The position numbers and the translations under genes were made by a program. A DNA stretch of 6,589 nucleotides from the IMG/VR virus record IMGVR_UViG_2563366849_000001; one strand, 5' to 3'. The notes beneath the pieces are model-generated. The model was not told the DNA's origin. It made no database searches and worked only from the letters and a program-made list of their open reading frames with translations. This DNA comes from a virus (lineage: Duplodnaviria > Heunggongvirae > Uroviricota > Caudoviricetes). Shown one piece after another: positions 1 through 6,589 of this stretch; the stretch's first letter is position 1; each line of letters begins with the position of its first letter.

Positions 1-198
1 GTTTTTTACTACGAGCGCGCCGTGTGTGCGATGGCGACCGCGTCGCTTTATGAGCGTTACCGCGGCGTGGATGCCAGTGCGAAAGGCGACAAGAAGGCCG
101 ACAGCATTGACAGCACCATTGATGAACTGTGGCGGGATATGCGCTGGGCGGTGGCGCGTATCCAGGACAAGCCGCGCTGCATCGTGAGTCAAATCTGA
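1..198 (+). CDS. L: 3' end of head completion/stabilisation protein gpL (5' part lies upstream of the window)
   Basis: Frame 1 is open from the window edge to TGA at 196-198 (…DELWRDMRWAVARIQDKPRCIVSQI*). The stop overlaps the ATG of the next gene (TGATG). Position immediately upstream of X matches P2 order L-X-Y. Identity is by synteny rather than a recognised motif. Confidence 0.6.
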   Translation, partial: VFYYERAVCAMATASLYERYRGVDASAKGDKKADSIDSTIDELWRDMRWAVARIQDKPRCIVSQI

Positions 199-401
199 TG
201 AAGACCTTTGCGCTACAGGGCGACACGCTCGACGCCATTTGTGTCCGGTATTACGGGCGCACTGAGGGCGTGGTCGAGACTGTGCTCGCCGCAAATCCGG
301 GACTGGCTGAACTGGGTGCGGTGCTGCCGCACGGCACCGCCGTCGAACTGCCCGACGTTCAGACCGCGCCCGTGGCTGAAACTGTCAATCTGTGGGAGTA
401 A
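198..401 (+). CDS. X: Tail protein gpX, small LysM-like protein (67 aa)
   Basis: ATG at 198 overlaps the upstream stop; 67 aa (MKTFALQGDTLDAICVRYYGRTEGVVETVLAANPGLAELG…NLWE), the size and sequence type of P2 gpX with a LysM-like 'DTLDAIC…YYG' signature. The ORF-track start at 129 is an in-frame upstream extension that overlaps L and is unlikely to be used. Confidence 0.85.
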   Translation: MKTFALQGDTLDAICVRYYGRTEGVVETVLAANPGLAELGAVLPHGTAVELPDVQTAPVAETVNLWE

Positions 402-404
402 CGC

Positions 405-689
405 ATGACAGCAGAAGAAAAAAGCGTCCTGTCGCTTTTCGTGATTGGGGTGCTGATTGTTGTCGGCAAGGTGCTTGCCGGTGGTGAACCCATCACCCCG
501 CGTCTGTTTATCGGGCGCATGTTGCTCGGTGGTTTTGTCTCGATGGTTGCCGGTGTTGTTCTGGTGCAGTTTCCTGACCTGTCACTGCCTGCGGTGTGCG
601 GCATCGGCTCCATGCTGGGTATCGCCGGTTATCAGGTGATTGAGATTGCCATTCAGCGCCGCTTTAAGGGCAGGGGGAAGCGGAATTAA
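405..689 (+). CDS. Y: Holin gpY (class I, three predicted transmembrane segments, basic C-terminus)
   Basis: GGGAG Shine-Dalgarno at 394-398, ATG at 405. 94 aa with three hydrophobic stretches (SVLSLFVIGVLIVVGKVLAGG / LFIGRMLLGGFVSMVAGVVLV / LPAVCGIGSMLGIAGYQVI) and a charged tail QRRFKGRGKRN. Follows X as in P2. The last few codons may be altered by the adjacent deletion junction. Confidence 0.8.
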   Translation: MTAEEKSVLSLFVIGVLIVVGKVLAGGEPITPRLFIGRMLLGGFVSMVAGVVLVQFPDLSLPAVCGIGSMLGIAGYQVIEIAIQRRFKGRGKRN

Positions 690-951
690 AACGGCCAGCG
701 TGACGGCTTCTGATTCTGTTACTGCCACGGTGCCGGTGGTCATGGTGAAAGCATCAACCCGCGTCACCCTGGACACACCGGAGGTGGTCTGCACCAACAG
801 GCTGATTACCGGCACGCTGGAAGTGCAGAAGGGCGGGACGATGCGCGGCAACATTGAACACACCGGCGGTGAACTCTCATCAAACGGGAAGGTACTGCAT
901 ACCCATAAACACCCCGGCGACAGCGGCGGCACAACCGGGGGACCTCTATGA
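679..951 (+). pseudogene. V: 3' fragment of baseplate spike gene V (about the C-terminal 90 codons; N-terminal domain deleted)
   Basis: Frame open from 640 but no plausible start or RBS of its own; its 5' part overlaps the Y 3' end. Translation …VPVVMVKASTRVTLDTPEVVCTNRLITGTLEVQKGGTMRGNIEHTGGELSSNGKVLHTHKHPGDSGGTTGGPL* resembles the C-terminal beta-helix tip of P2-type gpV spikes, including the His-x-His cluster. The TGA at 949-951 overlaps the W start (ATGA), as in an intact V-W junction. The full-length gene in P2 is roughly 210 codons. Confidence 0.7.
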
Positions 952-1295
952 CAGCGCGTTATCTCGGAATGAATCGCAGTGATGGCCTGACTGTCACTGA
1001 CCTTGAGCATATCAGCCAGAGTATCGGCGATATCCTGCGCACGCCGGTCGGCTCACGGGTGATGCGTCGTGATTACGGCTCGTTGCTGGCGTCAATGATT
1101 GACCAGCCGCAGACCCCGGCGCTTGAGTTGCAGATTAAGGTCGCCTGTTACATGGCGGTGCTGAAATGGGAACCCCGCGTCACCCTGTCATCTGTCACCA
1201 CGGCGCGCAGTTTTGACGGGCGAATGACGGTCACGTTAACCGGCCAGCACAACGACACCGGCCAGCCACTTTCGTTAACCATCCCTGTGAGTTGA
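948..1295 (+). CDS. W: Baseplate assembly protein gpW (gp25/GPW family, 115 aa)
   Basis: ATG at 948 coupled to the V stop; 115 aa (MTARYLGMNRSDGLTVTDLEHISQSIGDILRTPVGSRVMRRDYGS…) typical of the GPW/gp25 baseplate wedge family and the P2 gpW size. The stop at 1293-1295 lies 4 nt before the J start. Confidence 0.9.
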   Translation: MTARYLGMNRSDGLTVTDLEHISQSIGDILRTPVGSRVMRRDYGSLLASMIDQPQTPALELQIKVACYMAVLKWEPRVTLSSVTTARSFDGRMTVTLTGQHNDTGQPLSLTIPVS

Positions 1296-1299
1296 AACT

Positions 1300-1473
1300 A
1301 TGCCGATTATCGACCTGAACCAGCTACCCGCACCGGATGTGGTCGAGGAGCTGGACTTTGAAACCATTCTTGCCGAACGCAAGGCGACACTGATTTCCCT
1401 TTATCTGGGAGCTTTACGCCGCAACCGGTGTGGATGCCGTACCGATTCGTTTTGCAGGCTCTTACCAGCGTGA
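1300..1473 (+). pseudogene. J: Truncated baseplate gene J: about 35 native N-terminal codons, then out-of-frame read-through into FII sequence ending at TGA 1471-1473
   Basis: ATG at 1300 follows W as in P2. Translation MPIIDLNQLPAPDVVEELDFETILAERKATLISLY matches the gpJ N-terminus; from about 1405 the frame continues as LGALRRNRCGCRTDSFCRLLPA*, which is FII DNA read in the wrong frame. The intact gene in P2 is about 300 codons. Confidence 0.75.
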
Positions 1474-1708
1474 CGATACCGGCGAAACGGTGGCCGTCGA
1501 GGTGGTCATGCGTGGACGTCAGAAAGAAATCGACACCGGCGAGGGTAAACAGGGAGAAGACACCGAGTCGAAAATCTCCGTGGTCTGCACTTATTTCCGG
1601 CTGACGATGGACGGTAAGGAGCTGGTCGAAATTGACACCATCAACATGATTGAGAAGGTGAACGGCGTCGACCGGCTGGAGCAACACCGCCGCAATATCG
1701 GCCTGTGA
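1403..1708 (+). pseudogene. FII: 3' fragment of tail tube gene FII (about the C-terminal 100 codons, no native start)
   Basis: In the frame ending at TAA/TGA 1706-1708 the translation is IWELYAATGVDAVPIRFAGSYQRDDTGETVAVEVVMRGRQKEIDTGEGKQGEDTESKISVVCTYFRLTMDGKELVEIDTINMIEKVNGVDRLEQHRRNIGL*, which I recognise as the C-terminal part of P2-type tail tube protein FII (about 172 aa when intact). An in-frame stop at 1391-1393 lies just upstream; the ORF-track 'start' at 1430 is a GTG inside the gene. Located immediately upstream of E as in P2. Confidence 0.75.
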
Positions 1709-1715
1709 TTTTCAT

Positions 1716-1736
1716 CCGGTCAGCCTGGCTGACCGG
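1716..1736 (+). repeat. Perfect inverted repeat (CCGGTCAGCC-T-GGCTGACCGG) in the FII-E intergenic region; potential RNA stem-loop
   Basis: Read directly from the sequence: 10-nt arms that are exact reverse complements, 8 nt after the FII stop and about 28 nt before the E start. It is not followed by a U-run, so it is unlikely to be a classical intrinsic terminator; possibly an RNA stability or processing element. Confidence 0.45.
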
Positions 1737-1764
1737 TTAACCCTGATTCATAAGTGAGAAAACC

Positions 1765-2040
1765 ATGAACAAAGAAAATGTCATTACCCTGGACAATCCG
1801 GTCAAACGTGGTGAGCAGGTTATCGAACAGGTCACGCTGATGAAACCCAGTGCCGGGACGCTGCGCGGTGTCAGTCTGGCAGCGGTCGCGAACTCCGAAG
1901 TCGATGCACTGATTAAGGTGCTGCCGCGCATGACGGCACCGATGCTGACCGAGCAGGAAGTCGCCGCGCTGGAACTGCCTGACCTTGTGGCGCTGGCCGG
2001 TAAGGTGGTCGGTTTTTTGTCGCCGAACTCGGTGCAGTAA
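1765..2040 (+). CDS. E: Tail assembly chaperone gpE (91 aa)
   Basis: ATG at 1765, 91 aa ending TAA 2038-2040; contains the T TTT TTG slippery heptamer near its 3' end. Position between FII and T and the size match P2 gpE. Confidence 0.85.
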   Translation: MNKENVITLDNPVKRGEQVIEQVTLMKPSAGTLRGVSLAAVANSEVDALIKVLPRMTAPMLTEQEVAALELPDLVALAGKVVGFLSPNSVQ

Positions 2041-2192
2041 CGTTCCCGAAAAATCTGTCGGTCGATGACCTGATGGCGGATGTGGCAGTGATATTTCACT
2101 GGCCGCCATCAGAACTGTATCCCATGAGCCTGACCGAACTCATCACATGGCGCGAAAAGGCGCTCCGGCGAAGCGGAAACACGAATGAGTAA
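1765..2192 (+). CDS. E+E': gpE+E' tail assembly chaperone made by programmed -1 ribosomal frameshift (142 aa predicted)
   Basis: Slippery heptamer T-TTT-TTG at 2013-2019 in the E frame. The -1 frame is open from there (FFVAELGAVTFPKNLSVDDLMADVAVIFHWPPSELYPMSLTELITWREKALRRSGNTNE*) to TAA at 2190-2192, which overlaps the T start at 2185. 85 E codons plus 57 E' codons gives 142 aa. Same architecture as the known P2 E/E' and lambda G/GT chaperone pairs. Confidence 0.75.
2013..2019 (+). promoter_or_regulatory. -1 programmed frameshift slippery site (T TTT TTG)
   Basis: X-XXY-YYZ heptamer in the E reading frame (GGT TTT TTG), with a 57-codon open -1 frame downstream that ends exactly at the T start region. 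Confidence 0.7.
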
Positions 2193-4632
2193 CAATGTAA
2201 AATTACAGGTATTGCTCAGGGCTGTTGACCAGGCATCCCGCCCGTTTAAATCCATCCGTACAGCGAGCAAATCGCTGTCGGGGGATATCCGGGAAACACA
2301 AAAATCACTGCGCGAGCTGAACGGTCACGCATCCCGTATTGAGGGATTCCGCAAGACCAGTGCACAGCTCGCCGTGACTGGTCATGCACTTGAAAAGGCA
2401 CGGCAGGAAGCCAAAGCCCTTGCCACACAGTTTAAAAACACCGAACGTCCGACCCGTGCTCAGGCGAAAGTGCTGGAATCAGCAAAGCGAGCGGCGGAAG
2501 ACTTACAGGCGAAATATAACCGCCTGACGGATTCCGTTAAACGCCAGCAGCGGGAACTGGCCGCTGTGGGAATTAATACCCGCAATCTTGCACATGATGA
2601 GCAGGGGCTGAAAAACCGTATCAGTGAAACCACCGCACAGCTTAACCGTCAGCGCGACGCACTGGCGCGTGTCAGTGCACAACAGGCAAAACTTAACGCA
2701 GTCAAACAGCGTTATCAGGCCGGAAAAGAACTGGCAGGAAATATGGCCTCAGTGGGCGCTGCCGGTGTGGGGATTGCTGCTGCGGGAACGATGGCCGGAG
2801 TTAAGCTGCTGATGCCCGGTTATGAGTTTGCGCAGAAAAACTCAGAATTGCAGGCTGTGCTCGGTGTGGCAAAAGACTCCGCCGAAATGGCTGCACTACG
2901 CAAGCAGGCGCGCCAGCTCGGTGACAATACCGCCGCCTCAGCGGATGATGCGGCCGGTGCGCAGATTATCATTGCGAAAGCGGGTGGAGATGTTGATGCC
3001 ATTCAGGCGGCAACGCCGGTCACGCTGAACATGGCGCTGGCGAACCGTCGCACGATGGAAGAAAACGCCGCCCTGCTGATGGGGATGAAATCTGCCTTTC
3101 AGCTTTCAAACGATAAGGTCGCTCATATCGGGGATGTTCTCTCCATGACGATGAACAAAACCGCCGCCGATTTTGACGGTATGAGCGATGCGCTGACCTA
3201 TGCCGCACCTGTGGCAAAAAATGCCGGTGTCAGCATTGAAGAAACCGCCGCAATGGTCGGGGCGCTGCATGATGCAAAAATCACCGGTTCAATGGCGGGG
3301 ACGGGAAGCCGTGCCGTGTTAAGCCGCCTGCAGGCACCGACGGGAAAAGCATGGGATGCACTCAAAGAGCTTGGAGTGAAAACCTCAGACAGCAAGGGAA
3401 ACACCCGGACAATATTTACCATTCTGAAAGAAATGCAGGCCAGTTTTGAGAAAAACCGGCTCGGTACTGCCCAGCAGGCTGAATACATGAAAACTATTTT
3501 CGGGGAGGAGGCCAGCTCAGCCGCCGCCGTGCTGATGACTGCCGCCTCAAGCGGAAAGCTGGACAAACTGACCGCTGCGTTTAAAGCCTCAGACGGGAAG
3601 ACCGCCGAGCTGGTAAATATCATGCAGGACAACCTCGGCGGCGACTTTAAGGAGTTTCAGTCCGCTTATGAGGCGGTGGGGACTGACCTGTTTGACCAGC
3701 AGGAAGGCGCACTGCGTAAGCTCACTCAGACGGCCACAAAGTATGTGTTAAAACTCGACGGCTGGATCCAGAAAAACAAATCACTGGCGTCAACCATCGG
3801 CATCATTGCCGGTGGCGCGCTGGCGCTTATTGGCATCATCGGTGCAATTGGTCTTGTAGCCTGGCCGGTTATCACCGGCATCAATGCCATCATCGCGGCA
3901 GCAGGCGCAATGGGTGCAATCTTCACGACGGTTGGTAGTGCCGTTATGACGGCCATCGGGGCGATTAGCTGGCCGGTTGTGGCCGTGGTGGCTGCAATTG
4001 TCGCCGGGGCGTTGCTTATCCGTAAATACTGGGAGCCTGTCAGCGCATTCTTTGGCGGTGTGGTGGAAGGGCTGAAAGCGGCATTTGCGCCGGTGGGGGA
4101 ACTGTTCACGCCACTTAAACCGGTGTTTGACTGGCTGGGTGAAAAGTTACAGGCCGCGTGGCAATGGTTTAAAAACCTGATTGCCCCGGTCAAAGCCACC
4201 CAGGACACCCTGAACCGTTGCCGTGACACGGGCGTCATGTTCGGGCAGGCACTGGCTGACGCGCTGATGCTGCCGCTTAATGCGTTCAACAAACTGCGCA
4301 GTGGTATTGACTGGGTACTGGAAAAACTCGGTGTCATCAACAAAGAGTCAGACACACTTGACCAGACCGCCGCAAGGACTAATGCCGCCACGTATGGCAC
4401 CGGTGGTTATATTCCGGCGACCAGCTCTTATGCAGGCTATCAGGCTTATCAGCCGGTCACGGCACCGGCTGGCCGCTCTTATGTGGACCAGAGTAAAAAC
4501 GAATATCACATCAGCCTGACCGGTGGTACTGCGCCGGGGACACAGCTCGACCGCCAGTTACAGGATGCGCTCGAAAAATACGAGCGGGATAAACGTGCGC
4601 GCGCCCGTGCCAGCATGATGCATGACGGTTAA
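2185..4632 (+). CDS. T: Tail tape measure protein gpT (815 aa)
   Basis: 815-aa ORF directly after E/E'. The N-terminal third is Ala/Gln/Arg/Lys-rich and predicted coiled-coil; the central part is alpha-helical and Ala-rich; a long Gly/Ala/Ile-rich hydrophobic segment lies at about nt 3778-4030 (IGIIAGGALALIGIIGAIGLVAWPVITGINAIIAAAGAMGAIF…); C-terminal globular part. Size and architecture are typical of a myovirus tape measure and equal P2 gpT length. Confidence 0.9.
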   Translation: MSNNVKLQVLLRAVDQASRPFKSIRTASKSLSGDIRETQKSLRELNGHASRIEGFRKTSAQLAVTGHALEKARQEAKALATQFKNTERPTRAQAKVLESAKRAAEDLQAKYNRLTDSVKRQQRELAAVGINTRNLAHDEQGLKNRISETTAQLNRQRDALARVSAQQAKLNAVKQRYQAGKELAGNMASVGAAGVGIAAAGTMAGVKLLMPGYEFAQKNSELQAVLGVAKDSAEMAALRKQARQLGDNTAASADDAAGAQIIIAKAGGDVDAIQAATPVTLNMALANRRTMEENAALLMGMKSAFQLSNDKVAHIGDVLSMTMNKTAADFDGMSDALTYAAPVAKNAGVSIEETAAMVGALHDAKITGSMAGTGSRAVLSRLQAPTGKAWDALKELGVKTSDSKGNTRTIFTILKEMQASFEKNRLGTAQQAEYMKTIFGEEASSAAAVLMTAASSGKLDKLTAAFKASDGKTAELVNIMQDNLGGDFKEFQSAYEAVGTDLFDQQEGALRKLTQTATKYVLKLDGWIQKNKSLASTIGIIAGGALALIGIIGAIGLVAWPVITGINAIIAAAGAMGAIFTTVGSAVMTAIGAISWPVVAVVAAIVAGALLIRKYWEPVSAFFGGVVEGLKAAFAPVGELFTPLKPVFDWLGEKLQAAWQWFKNLIAPVKATQDTLNRCRDTGVMFGQALADALMLPLNAFNKLRSGIDWVLEKLGVINKESDTLDQTAARTNAATYGTGGYIPATSSYAGYQAYQPVTAPAGRSYVDQSKNEYHISLTGGTAPGTQLDRQLQDALEKYERDKRARARASMMHDG

Positions 4633-4646
4633 GGAGGTGACGAAAA

Positions 4647-5126
4647 ATGATGCTCGCGTTAGGTATGTTTGTTTTTATGCGCCAGACGCTGCCACACCAG
4701 ACCATGCAGCGTGAATCAGATTATCGCTGGCCGTCAAATTCCCGTATCGGTAAACGGGACGCCTACCAGTTTCTCGGTGTGGGTGAGGAAAACATCACGC
4801 TTGCCGGTGTGCTTTATCCAGAACTGACCGGCGGCAAGCTGACGATGACCACGCTCAGGCTGATGGCCGAGGAAGGCCGGGCGTGGCCGTTGCTGGATGG
4901 CACCGGCATGATTTACGGCATGTATGTCATCAGCAGGGTGAGTGAAACAGGGAGTATTTTCTTTGCAGACGGCACACCCCGAAAAATTGATTTTACGCTG
5001 TCGCTCACCCGCGTTGATGAATCACTGGCCGCGCTTTATGGCGATATCGGTAAACAGGCGGAATCGCTCATCGGTAAGGCCGGCAGTATGGCGACCAGAT
5101 TCACGGGTATGACGGGGGCGGGATAA
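4647..5126 (+). CDS. U: Tail protein gpU (tail terminator/tail formation protein, 159 aa)
   Basis: Strong SD AGGAGGT at 4632-4638, ATG at 4647; 159 aa; the stop TAA at 5124-5126 overlaps the D start (TAATG). Position and size match P2 gpU. Confidence 0.85.
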   Translation: MMLALGMFVFMRQTLPHQTMQRESDYRWPSNSRIGKRDAYQFLGVGEENITLAGVLYPELTGGKLTMTTLRLMAEEGRAWPLLDGTGMIYGMYVISRVSETGSIFFADGTPRKIDFTLSLTRVDESLAALYGDIGKQAESLIGKAGSMATRFTGMTGAG

Positions 5127-6289
5127 TGCTGGATGCACTGACATTTGATGCAGGCAGTACGCTGACGCCGGATTACATGCTGATGCTCGACAGCAGGGAT
5201 ATTACCGGCAATATCAGCGACCGTCTGATGAGCATGACCCTGACGGATAACCGGGGCTTTGAGGCTGACCAGCTTGATATTGAACTGAACGATGCCGACG
5301 GGCAGGTCGGGCTGCCGGTTCGTGGCGCTGTCCTGACGGTGTATATCGGCTGGAAAGGTTTTGCCCTGGTATGCAAAGGGAAATTCACCGTTGATGAGGT
5401 TGAACACCGGGGCGCGCCGGATGTGGTTACCATCCGCGCCCGGAGTGCAGATTTTCGCGGGACGCTCAATTCCCGCCGTGAAGGCTCATGGCATGACACC
5501 ACGCTCGGTGCGATTGTTGAGGCGATAGCCTCCCGTAACAGGCTGGAAGCCAGTGTCGCGCCGTCACTGGCCGGAATTAAAATCCCGCACATCGACCAGT
5601 CGCAGGAGTCTGATGCGAAATTCCTGACCCGTCTTGCAGAACGCAACGGCGGTGAGGTGTCGGTAAAAATGGGAAAACTGTTGTTTCTCAAAGCGGGGCA
5701 GGGAGTGACGGCCAGCGGTAAAAAAATCCCGCAGGTCACCATAACCCGCAGCGACGGCGACCGCCATCATTTTGCGATTGCTGACCGTGGAGCCTACACC
5801 GGTGTAACGGCAAAATGGCTACACACCAAAGACCCGAAGCCTCAAAAGCAGAAGGTAAAACTGAAACGCAAAAAGAAAGAGAAACACCTGCGCGCACTGG
5901 AGCACCCGAAAGCGAAACCGGTCAGGCAGAAGAAAGCGCCTAAAGTACCGGAAGCGCGTGAAGGTGAATACATGGCCGGTGAGGCTGACAACGTTTTTGC
6001 CCTGACCACGGTATATGCCACGAAAGCGCAGGCCATGCGCGCCGCTCAGGCGAAGTGGGATAAGCTGCAACGGGGCGTTGCGGAGTTCTCCATCAGTCTG
6101 GCTACCGGTCGTGCTGATATTTACACGGAAACACCGGTTAAAGTGTCAGGCTTTAAGCGCGTCATAGACGAGCAGGACTGGACAATCACTAAGGTGACAC
6201 ATTTTCTGAATAATAGCGGCTTCACGACGTCCTTGGAGCTTGAGGTCAGGCTTTCTGATGTGGAGTACGAAACAGAAGATGATGAGTGA
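5126..6289 (+). CDS. D: Tail protein gpD (phage late control gene D family, 387 aa)
   Basis: ATG at 5126 translationally coupled to U; 387 aa, the P2 gpD size; last gene of the F-E-T-U-D tail operon, directly upstream of ogr. Contains an unusually lysine-rich segment, residues about 233-280 (KDPKPQKQKVKLKRKKKEKHLRALEHPKAKPVRQKKAPKVPEAREGE). Confidence 0.9.
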   Translation: MLDALTFDAGSTLTPDYMLMLDSRDITGNISDRLMSMTLTDNRGFEADQLDIELNDADGQVGLPVRGAVLTVYIGWKGFALVCKGKFTVDEVEHRGAPDVVTIRARSADFRGTLNSRREGSWHDTTLGAIVEAIASRNRLEASVAPSLAGIKIPHIDQSQESDAKFLTRLAERNGGEVSVKMGKLLFLKAGQGVTASGKKIPQVTITRSDGDRHHFAIADRGAYTGVTAKWLHTKDPKPQKQKVKLKRKKKEKHLRALEHPKAKPVRQKKAPKVPEAREGEYMAGEADNVFALTTVYATKAQAMRAAQAKWDKLQRGVAEFSISLATGRADIYTETPVKVSGFKRVIDEQDWTITKVTHFLNNSGFTTSLELEVRLSDVEYETEDDE

Positions 6290-6307
6290 TGCTTTTATTT
6301 TATCTGT

Positions 6308-6336
6308 TTGTTTTATAAGGATAAATTAACTAAAAT
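6308..6336 (+). promoter_or_regulatory. Candidate sigma70 promoter for ogr (TTGTTT - 17 nt - TAAAAT)
   Basis: -35-like TTGTTT at 6308-6313 and -10-like TAAAAT at 6331-6336 with a 17-nt spacer, in the AT-rich gap between the D stop (6289) and the ogr start (6371). Sequence-pattern prediction only. Confidence 0.4.
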
Positions 6337-6370
6337 GGCACTATCAACAAAACCGGAAGAGGTGCTCGCG

Positions 6371-6589
6371 ATGTTTCATTGTCCTTTATGCCAGCATGCC
6401 GCACATGCGCGTACAAGTCGCTATATCACTGACACGACAAAAGAGCGTTATCACCAGTGCCAGAACGTGAATTGCAGCGCCACGTTCATCACTTATGAGT
6501 CGGTACAGCGATACATCGTGAAGCCGGGAGAAGTCCACGCCGTAAGGCCGCACCCGTTGCCGTCAGGGCAGCAAATTATGTGGATGTAA
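6371..6589 (+). CDS. ogr: Ogr, Cys4 zinc-finger activator of P2 late promoters (72 aa, complete)
   Basis: ATG at 6371 with GAAGAGG RBS about 8 nt upstream; 72 aa MFHCPLCQHAAHARTSRYITDTTKERYHQCQNVNCSATFITYESVQRYIVKPGEVHAVRPHPLPSGQQIMWM*, matching as far as I can recall the P2 Ogr / E. coli OgrK sequence with the C-x2-C-x22-C-x4-C zinc-binding motif (Cys4, 7, 30, 35). The stop TAA is the last three bases of the window. The ORF-track start at 6308 adds a 21-aa extension that I consider spurious. Confidence 0.9.
   Translation: MFHCPLCQHAAHARTSRYITDTTKERYHQCQNVNCSATFITYESVQRYIVKPGEVHAVRPHPLPSGQQIMWM

Follow-up and report, generated by a model that had tools for sequence, protein, structure and literature searches.

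The P2-type tail chaperone frameshift site E/E+E' in an internally deleted P2-like prophage

Tail chaperone frameshifts of P2 and related phages

A class of tail chaperone frameshifts in dsDNA phages has reportedly been described by Levin et al. in 1993 and by Xu, Hendrix and Duda in 2004, 2013 and 2014, and the programmed -1 frameshift between gpE and gpE+E' of phage P2 is said to have been described by Christie et al. in 2002. The slippery sequence of lambda is G GGA AAG, unlike the T TTT TTG considered here, and P2 furthermore differs from lambda in being a contractile-tail phage. P2 nonetheless has in common with the lambda G/GT class that a -1 shift of low level, placed close to where the upstream ORF ends, gives two products with a common N-terminus, and that the genes lie between the major tail or tube gene and the tape-measure gene. 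The analogy to lambda G/GT drawn in the original prediction is in agreement with this arrangement of overlapping ORFs and a -1 slip near the end. Chaperones of the lambda class have been proposed to link tube polymerisation to the tape measure (review PMC5009743), and PMC3091744, which cites Christie 2002, states that frameshifting at TTTTTTG in P2 gives a 91-aa E and a 142-aa E+E' without a downstream structure. The P2 GenBank record AF063097 describes E+E' as '-1 frameshift; essential tail protein'.

Homologues of E/E+E' are likewise found as orf51/orf52 (gene H) of phage 186, as orf23/23.5 of PSP3, and in P2-like phages of Burkholderia, Ralstonia, Pseudomonas (phiCTX), Klebsiella, Yersinia and Vibrio. 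As at the site described here, the E homologue has T TTT TTG (or T6C/T7) in register close to its 3' end, and the -1 ORF of 54-73 codons carries the conserved motif ADIAxIFHWPP...W(R)E(K/R)A and ends at the tape-measure start, but these phages differ in protein identity (31-77%) and in the zero-frame tail after the heptamer, which is 2-16 codons long. Xuanwuvirus P88_4B11 differs in using A AAT TTT as heptamer.

The stretch of DNA that was analysed, hereafter the window, is 6,589 nt long, and its positions 1765-2192 are almost certainly the P2 E/E+E' programmed -1 frameshift pair of a P2-like (Peduovirus) prophage, intact since the deletions in this prophage are very recent. The heptamer, the six codons separating it from the E stop, the 57-codon extension and the ATGAGTAA overlap with T are the same as in P2 (AF063097), and so are the flanking genes, with FII (tube) upstream and T (tape measure), U, D and ogr downstream (Table 1). 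The element in the window, unlike P2, has neither FI nor the greater part of FII, and it has likewise lost the fibre genes, the baseplate genes and PF, the promoter from which the operon is driven in P2. The predicted gpE (91 aa) and gpE+E' (142 aa, E codons 1-85 plus the E' extension) are each 100% identical to their P2 counterparts, and the 428 nt of 1765-2192 differ from P2 at 7 positions, all of them synonymous in the frame being read; one of these changes the E stop from TGA to TAA and, in E', GTG to GTA (Val). Furthermore, E matches Pfam PF10109 Phage_TAC_7 (1.5e-12, 47.8 bits, cut-off 25), and E' matches PF06528 Phage_P2_GpE with residues 104-139 of the fusion (1.2e-21, 76.3 bits, cut-off 23). 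Among PDB sequences gpE+E' has no relative of solved structure, its single match (E = 0.88) being spurious, and NCBIfam has no model for the fused protein; a text search of Sharma et al. 2014 gave no match for the TTTTTTG heptamer, and a phage-assembly review makes no mention of gpE.

Judged by alignment, the frameshift site is the already known P2 tail-chaperone site with the same predicted proteins as in P2, and that it is intact is to be expected of a known site, coding for the same proteins, whose P2-like prophage sits in a chromosome of E. coli type and has suffered its deletions only recently. The scientific weight of the locus is small, as this is the textbook P2 E/E+E' recoding signal with P2-identical products, and its practical value lies in annotation: RefSeq/PGAP calls E and a separate 39-aa 'GpE family' ORF and not the joined product, and such loci should carry a ribosomal-slippage join.

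Table 1. Features of the window, in order of position
Feature	Position	Strand	Basis
Gene X, tail protein X, intact	198..401	+	Pfam Phage_tail_X 4.4e-32
Holin gene Y; last residue Q -> RN at junction 1, otherwise complete	405..689	+	Pfam Phage_holin_3_2 2.3e-42
Deletion junction 1, last holin Y codons joined to mid-V	678..679	.	microhomology AA
Gene W, gp25-like baseplate wedge, intact	948..1295	+	Pfam GPW_gp25
J' chimeric ORF, 57 aa: ~35 J N-terminal codons, then out-of-frame FII sequence	1300..1473	+	junction sequence
Deletion junction 2, J codon ~35 joined to mid-FII	1401..1403	.	microhomology TTA
FII (tail tube) C-terminal fragment, 92 codons, own start lost via deletion 2	1430..1708	+	P2 alignment
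Perfect 9-bp hairpin CCGGTCAGC-CTG-GCTGACCGG, FII-E intergenic, without U-tract	1716..1736	+	-18.8 kcal/mol, z = -3.2
Gene E, tail assembly chaperone gpE, zero-frame, 91 aa	1765..2040	+	ORF; Pfam PF10109; P2 identity
Slippery heptamer T TTT TTG	2013..2019	+	P2 site 19685 = window 2020; kept in relatives
E' extension, 57 codons plus TAA	2019..2192	+	-1 frame translation; Pfam PF06528; P2 identity
Gene T, tape measure protein, 815 aa	2185..4632	+	Pfam PhageMin_Tail 9e-45; matches P2 T
Gene U, tail protein	4647..5126	+	Pfam Phage_P2_GpU 2.8e-44
Gene D, baseplate hub / late control D family	5126..6289	+	Pfam Phage_GPD 5.4e-27
ogr, late-gene transcriptional activator, 72 aa	6371..6589	+	Pfam Ogr_Delta; P2 ogr 24036-24254

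The slippery site and its conservation

The heptamer is read in the E frame as GGT (2011-13), TTT (2014-16) and TTG (2017-19), which gives T TTT TTG the X XXY YYZ register six codons ahead of the E stop (TAA, 2038-2040). From 2019 the -1 frame reads VAELGAVTFPKNLSVDDLMADVAVIFHWPPSELYPMSLTELITWREKALRRSGNTNE, that is 57 sense codons, and is then closed by the TAA at 2190-2192, which overlaps the T gene that starts with the ATG at 2185-2187. The original prediction, in which the heptamer was placed at 2013-2019 in the E frame, with the -1 frame open for 57 codons to a stop overlapping the T start and with the recoding signal conserved in P2, is upheld on all these points by the window bases together with the E start at 1765, by the translation from 2019 and by the P2 GenBank record, where the 'site of -1 translational frameshift' at P2 19685 is window 2020 in the alignment to P2. 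Nucleotides -30 to +19 around the heptamer are furthermore identical in the window and P2. The placement of the heptamer is not a chance event, and among the in-frame X XXY YYZ motifs in the genes of the window a long -1 ORF is found at the E site only (57 codons versus 5-33 at the other four). Going upstream, the -1 frame closes 5 codons before the shift site, which leaves the heptamer as its only entry. The mere count of TTTTTTG copies in the window was rejected as evidence, since it is within chance (2 versus 1.5 expected, with at least two copies in 94 of 200 shuffles).

Taking the slip mechanism and the chaperone roles from work on P2 and lambda, the majority of ribosomes would read E to its stop and make gpE, and a minority would slip one base back at T TTT TTG, with the P-site tRNA-Phe re-pairing from UUU to UUU and the A-site tRNA-Leu from UUG to UUU. 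The slipped ribosomes would resume at GUC 2019 and produce gpE+E' with the junction ...KVVGFL-VAELGAV..., terminating at the TAA that overlaps the T start. The junction first proposed, ...GFL/FVAELGAV, is one residue off from this product of tandem slippage. The predicted diagnostic tryptic junction peptide of gpE+E' is VVGFLVAELGAVTFPK, whereas gpE is predicted to end in VVGFLSPNSVQ. On the lambda G/GT model, binding of the tape measure would fall to the E part that both products share and recruitment of tube subunits to the E' domain, and the slip frequency would set a fixed low ratio of gpE+E' to gpE.

Conservation was followed in the close IMG/VR loci with full-length, gap-free alignments, 77 of 77 of which retain the heptamer and both open frames, and in 14 diverse relatives, all of which have an in-frame slippery heptamer (TTTTTTG in 10, TTTTTTC in 2, TTTTTTT in 1 and AAATTTT in 1, and hence T6N in 13) followed by a -1 ORF of 54-73 codons. 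Stop codons in the -1 frame of orthologous loci, which would have spoken against the original prediction, are thus absent from the 77 close and the 14 diverse relatives alike. Upstream of the heptamer, E-frame third positions hold 41 of the 43 polymorphic sites, and in 2041-2184 it is the -1-frame third positions that hold 14 of 20. Likewise pN/pS is 0.031 for E and 0.055 for E', as compared with 2-12 in the control (wrong) frames, and the check suggested for E', dN/dS across related prophages, thus has its counterpart in a low pN/pS in the -1 frame. Both frames are under purifying selection in the relatives, and it is at the heptamer that the bias towards third positions passes from one frame to the other. 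Of 417 phage records, 397 furthermore match at least 80% of the fused protein, nearly all of the matches listed consisting of two frame-shifted pieces.

Deletion history and alternative explanations

In the comparison with P2 the window falls into three gap-free colinear blocks, window 1401-6589 being P2 19066-24254. Deletion 1, about 3.7 kb (P2 6991-10666), removed K, lysA, lysB, lysC, R, S, the O-operon terminator, orf30, the PV promoter and the 5' part of V, and deletion 2, about 7.7 kb (P2 11404-19065), removed the rest of J, I, H, G, the V-operon terminator, fun(Z), the PF promoter, FI and the 5' part of FII. FII (P2 18855-19373) has through deletion 2 lost its N-terminal two thirds, with Pfam Phage_tube still matching the called ORF of the fragment, and the J' ORF is diagnostic of this deletion. 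Overall, lysis, baseplate, fibre and sheath genes and most of the tube gene have been lost together with the PV and PF promoters, and the description of the element as a tail-defective remnant is borne out by these two internal deletions on the P2 map, while resting on draft scaffolds. Deletion 2 took with it the PF activator site and start (P2 17555-17628), which leaves no Ogr-dependent transcription from PF, and no sigma-70-like promoter beyond chance is found upstream of E; this bears on how the remnant may be expressed and leaves the identity of the frameshift site untouched. Since both PF and PV are inside the deletions, the frameshift site may never be translated in the remnant; E-T-U-D could be transcribed only via read-through from the upstream O-operon promoter, which is conceivable because both intervening terminators are deleted. 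E. coli K-12 too has a cryptic P2 remnant, of which ogrK and a fragment of D are left; there as well the right end next to attR (D, ogr) has outlived internal deletion. The window differs from the K-12 remnant in being far larger and undecayed, in lying beside pflB, before which ogr is the final prophage gene, and in having complete E, T, U, D, X, Y and W.

As to the age of the deletions, the retained segments show no indel and no stop relative to P2, and this is true even of the V, J and FII fragments, for which a function is out of the question. The closest intact prophage, which occupies the same site beside pflB in E. coli DETEC-S792, differs at 25 positions in 6589 nt; 17 of the 23 differing coding positions are synonymous, the 6 nonsynonymous ones fall in 4 codons, and there are no differences at all in E/E', the FII fragment, the J fragment, U and ogr. 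Furthermore, the junction-specific ORFs together with the exact T protein occur in only two NCBI assemblies, both drafts and near-clonal, with 4.9 kb of flanking chromosome the same in the two. Among the GTDB species representatives an exact 30-mer spanning junction 2 has 0 matches, and the second deletion was therefore not found in these genomes. None of 5426 complete E. coli genomes has a colinear copy of the whole window, the best 'full' matches being pieces spread over 8.6-13 kb, i.e. intact prophages. At least 80% of E-D is found in 1620 and at least 80% of FI-FII in 1602 of the complete genomes, and E-D without sheath and tube (FI-FII) would by these gross counts occur in at most about 1%. 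Partial matches are found in about 450-560 additional genomes, which accords with other decayed P2-like prophages that keep the right end. The data fit a recent deletion history as far as sequence comparison goes: two segments would have been lost very recently through illegitimate recombination at 2-3 bp microhomologies, and the remainder would not have had time to decay.

The original prediction left the choice between a recent deletion and continued selection on the E-T-U-D block, and of these the recent deletion is favoured by the undecayed fragments and the two near-clonal assemblies, whereas selection finds no support. One could imagine that E-T-U-D and its frameshift are held by selection, either because, once co-opted, they supply or poison the tails of superinfecting P2-like phages or P4-type satellites, or because they have a host function, and this notion is in agreement with the facts that the complete retained genes X, Y, W, E, E', T, U, D and ogr are all intact, that loss of both internal terminators with ogr kept could in principle let O-operon read-through express the block, and that internally deleted P2-like prophages with the right end kept are present in other E. 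coli genomes too. It is nonetheless made very improbable by the V C-terminus, the J N-terminus and the FII C-terminus, which are as undecayed as E-T-U-D, and the intactness of the latter therefore does not discriminate. The differences from the DETEC-S792 prophage are mostly synonymous and clustered, as is typical of phage evolution before the deletion or of recombination, PF has been lost, and both the restriction of the junctions to two near-clonal assemblies and the rarity of E-D without FI-FII are in poor agreement with a maintained function. It is just as hard to credit that the deletions have made a single Ogr-dependent unit of the late operons O, V and F, and that this unit is kept to help or sabotage the tails of incoming P2-like phages or P4-type satellites; if this were true, the unit would still make holin, X, W, E/E+E', the tape measure, U and D, and the frameshift ratio would stay under selection in a host-domesticated setting. 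There is no evidence of selection on E-T-U-D, though the few substitutions that have occurred since the deletion leave weak ongoing selection conceivable. The intact 428-nt segment is in itself uninformative on selection, because nonfunctional fragments are equally undecayed, and as a point of method an intact short element in a remnant says nothing of selection unless its nonfunctional neighbours have visibly decayed.

It is conceivable, though unlikely, that the remnant is an assembly artefact in which the contigs of one complete P2-like prophage, or of two, have been mis-joined, the frameshift site then being that of an intact prophage. The window starts at base 1 of a draft scaffold, and in the sister assembly there are large N gaps, a 565-bp stretch that includes junction 2 is duplicated in tandem, and the 5' end of T is joined to a piece that matches the P2 L gene at 100% identity; in addition, 7 of the 10 differences between the assemblies are at positions where another P2-like prophage also differs, which suggests that a second prophage copy contributed reads. 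Both junctions are however continuous and without Ns, the 2-3 bp microhomology is too short for a mis-join, the junctions are reproduced in two separately deposited assemblies, and the window itself has no visible ambiguity. Nonetheless one can be less sure of how exactly the remnant is built than of the frameshift site, since the scaffolds are drafts and the sister assembly is garbled. As regards the site itself, it seems extremely improbable that E' is made separately, from an internal ATG at 2073 or by transcriptional slippage on T6, and not by ribosomal frameshifting, even though a separate 39-aa 'GpE family phage tail protein' is annotated by RefSeq in the closest prophage and the Pfam GpE model begins exactly at the Met of ATG 2073. 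A run of six T could permit rare RNA-polymerase slippage, but productive transcriptional slippage usually takes longer runs. In 2041-2072, -1-frame third positions hold 5 of 6 polymorphic sites, and the stretch before ATG 2073 is therefore under coding constraint. Furthermore, Val, Ile or Trp stands in place of the Met in Kp4860-7, Kp4875-2, phiT5282H, pZM36, VHML and P88_4B11, all six of which keep the heptamer (or a variant of it) and the open -1 frame; ATG 2073 is thus not conserved, and E' is therefore not independently initiated. No SD sequence precedes 2073, the -1 frame can be entered only at the heptamer, and -1 translational frameshifting is what both the P2 record and PMC3091744 give.

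RNA elements around the site

Frameshifting at the E site appears to proceed without need of an RNA stimulator. No significant downstream structure is found in the fold of 2020-2100 (-23 kcal/mol, z = -0.84, with 41 of 200 shuffles folding as well), the stable structure 5-9 nt after the heptamer that marks the stimulator-dependent class (dnaX / IS3-type, in which an SD-like element upstream is combined with a hairpin or pseudoknot downstream) is lacking, and Rfam gave no match anywhere in the window in permissive E-value mode. An SD-like AAGGTGG is found at 2002-2008, 4-5 nt before the heptamer, but is confounded with conserved K/E-V residues. The same AAGGTGG is present in P2, 186, PSP3, Yersinia 31.17 and Kp4882-2, and GAGGTG in Ralstonia and Aeromonas, and neither is found in others. 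Near AAGGTGG 1 of 7 synonymous sites is polymorphic versus about 50% overall (P ~0.06, binomial estimate), a difference that is inseparable from amino-acid conservation. A terminator-like hairpin at 1992-2013 before the T run was rejected, since its stem is G-U-rich and 7 such sites are found versus 7.5 expected. The perfect hairpin between FII and E (Table 1) is likely a partial terminator or attenuator ahead of E, and the record of phage 186 has 'tI; partial terminator' at the equivalent position.

Identity of the E/E+E' frameshift site

The slippery heptamer that the original prediction placed in the E frame is confirmed by the bases (...GGTAAGGTGGTCGG TTTTTTG TCGCC...) and by the codon register, since the zero frame from the E start at 1765 reads GGT TTT TTG and thus puts it in X XXY YYZ phase. 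E yields a product of 91 aa, whereas the -1 frame entered at 2019 runs for 57 sense codons (VAELGAV...SGNTNE) to a stop overlapping the start of T, an 815-codon tape-measure gene, again as predicted. The heptamer on its own is unremarkable, with two copies in the window against 1.5 expected, and it is the placement that counts: of five in-frame slippery heptamers in window genes, only that in E leads into a long -1 ORF.

The window is P2-like from end to end (97.3% identity to AF063097 in three gap-free blocks), and the P2 base that corresponds to window 2020 is annotated as a 'site of -1 translational frameshift'. The P2 record also lists both E and E+E' ('shares amino terminus with gpE; -1 frameshift; essential tail protein'). 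Neither predicted protein, gpE or gpE+E', differs from its P2 counterpart (100% identity), and the 428 nt hold 7 substitutions relative to P2, each of them synonymous in whichever frame is read; one of these turns the E stop from TGA in P2 into TAA here and leaves Val unchanged in E'. In Pfam, furthermore, E falls in Phage_TAC_7, and the -1 extension in Phage_P2_GpE (1.2e-21). Where PMC3091744 cites Christie et al. 2002 and Xu et al. 2004, the -1 shift of P2 at TTTTTTG is stated to give 91-aa and 142-aa proteins from a site devoid of downstream structure; folding of the window RNA downstream of the heptamer revealed no structure (z = -0.84), and an Rfam search gave no match. We conclude that this is the programmed -1 frameshift of P2 E/E+E', a correct rediscovery of a known site.

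A Shine-Dalgarno-like AAGGTGG lies 4-5 nt 5' of the heptamer and is common to P2, 186, PSP3, a Yersinia phage and a Klebsiella phage, while Ralstonia and Aeromonas relatives have GAGGTG and several others neither form. It could tune frameshift efficiency or merely represent the codons of conserved K/E-V residues.

Coordinates of the features in the window, with the P2 intervals missing at the two junctions as mapped on P2
Feature	Window	Missing in P2 coordinates	Details
Holin Y	405-689		last residue altered, Q to RN
Deletion 1	junction 678-679	6991-10666 (~3.7 kb)	microhomology AA; K, lysA, lysB, lysC, R, S, O-operon terminator, orf30, PV promoter and 5' part of V lost
Deletion 2	junction 1401-1403	11404-19065 (~7.7 kb)	microhomology TTA; most of J, I, H, G, V-operon terminator, fun(Z), PF promoter, FI and 5' two thirds of FII lost
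Hairpin	1716-1736		between FII fragment and E
Shine-Dalgarno-like motif	2002-2008		AAGGTGG
Slippery heptamer	2013-2019		T TTT TTG
E stop	2038-2040		TAA
Internal ATG in E'	2073		PGAP start
T start	2185		ATG
E' stop	2190-2192		TAA

Conservation and the route to E'

Among 80 close IMG/VR loci, the 77 that align full-length and gap-free were used for the conservation count, and in all of them the heptamer is present and both frames are open. Of the three others, one has two 1-nt deletions in E, one is interrupted inside E' and one carries a TGA stop instead of TAA. In IMGVR_UViG_2531839586_000013 (1501-1926), whose E gene is otherwise 98% identical, the loss of one base near codon 52 and of another near codon 57 disrupts the E frame 5' of the heptamer; the copy has decayed, or the sequence is in error. 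IMGVR_UViG_2695420821_000010 holds two E copies ~6 kb apart on a single contig, the second broken inside E' near codon 20, adjoining an N.

Across 67 haplotypes, E-frame third positions make up 41 of 43 polymorphic sites 5' of the heptamer, and -1-frame third positions 14 of 20 in 2041-2184. E has a pN/pS ratio of 0.031 and E' one of 0.055, where wrong-frame readings of the same DNA give 2-12. In the phage collection the fused protein is matched over at least 80% in 397 of 417 records, and among the matches listed nearly all are two-piece matches. Furthermore, 14 diverse relatives (186, PSP3, Yersinia, Klebsiella, Enterobacter, Burkholderia, Ralstonia, Pseudomonas phiCTX, Zymomonas, Vibrio VHML and Aeromonas elements) each carry a slippery heptamer in register at the equivalent position (T6G in ten, T6C in two, T7 and A AAT TTT in one each) and a -1 ORF of 54-73 codons.

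In the prophage of E. coli DETEC-S792, the PGAP annotation has no ribosomal-slippage join with E but gives E' a gene of its own from the internal ATG, a 39-aa 'GpE family phage tail protein' (RefSeq, L100 15673-15792). Independent initiation there is unlikely, since this ATG is not conserved among the diverse relatives, the -1-frame codon bias is already present between the E stop and the ATG, and five codons 5' of the shift point the -1 frame is already closed; for these reasons we regard E' as entered by frameshifting. The split looks like a systematic annotation gap in P2-like prophages.

Deletions and age of the remnant

The window comprises the first 6589 nt of scaffold KE137287.1 (GCA_000408785.1), where pflB, focA and ycaO lie 3' of ogr; the site belongs to a P2-like prophage, truncated recently, in an E. 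coli-type chromosome. The P2 map bears out the notion of a tail-defective remnant: two internal deletions leave X, W, E/E', T, U, D and ogr intact, as well as Y but for its end, and by gene content the element is tail-defective by itself. Of the two explanations originally offered for the preserved signal, recent deletion or continued selection on E-T-U-D, the former agrees with the retained segments, in which no indels or premature stops relative to P2 were found even in the non-functional V, J and FII fragments, while intactness is uninformative as to the latter. The nearest intact prophage, that of DETEC-S792 at the same chromosomal site beside pflB, differs at 25 of 6589 nt; 17 of 23 differing coding positions are synonymous and 6, in 4 codons, nonsynonymous, several differences are clustered as expected of recombination, and E/E', U, ogr and the fragments of FII and J are free of them. 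Divergence is 0.38% for the prophages and ~1.5%, four times more per kb, for the pflB-focA-ycaO flank (6590-11473 of the flanked scaffold, L003), and prophages closer than their hosts point to acquisition that was independent or recent. Only two assemblies carry the junction-specific ORFs and the exact T protein, the two being identical across 4.9 kb of chromosomal flank, and E-D-only remnants are rare among complete E. coli genomes by gross counts (1620 with E-D, 1602 with FI-FII). A very recent deletion is the parsimonious reading, and the intact 428 nt is then the default expectation and no evidence of selection.

With the internal late promoters PV and PF gone, along with the internal terminators of the O and V operons, the O, V and F operons would on paper be fused into one unit, L-X-Y-(V')-W-(J'/FII')-E-T-U-D. 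E-T-U-D has lost its promoter, and since the terminators in between are deleted too, transcription might conceivably reach it by read-through from the O-operon promoter, which lies outside the window. That a domesticated, fused late operon is kept under selection is very improbable and has no positive support. Somewhat less remote, though still unlikely, is that the remnant is an assembly artefact, since the sister assembly GCA_000351965.1 is anomalous at the locus: its scaffold KB733421.1 (e.g. L002 10102-11746) has two N gaps, one of 6.7 and one of 4.3 kb, and repeats window 1371-1935, including the second junction, as a 565-bp tandem duplication. It also has T codon ~7 joined to the M/L intergenic region, a stretch that matches the P2 L gene at 100% identity attached to the 5' end of T, and alleles in common with other P2-like prophages. 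These anomalies point either to another P2-like prophage in the strain or to scaffolding errors and assembly noise. Both junctions are however clean and reproduced in two assemblies, albeit both draft scaffolds, and their microhomology is too short for mis-joins; the identification of the frameshift site is in any case unaffected.

With endolysin K, antiholin LysA and spanins LysB/LysC deleted, Y is an orphan holin under a late promoter. The hairpin upstream of E has a perfect 9-bp stem and no U-tract (-18.8 kcal/mol, z = -3.2), matches the position of the 'partial terminator tI' annotated in phage 186, and probably reduces E-T-U-D transcription relative to sheath and tube.
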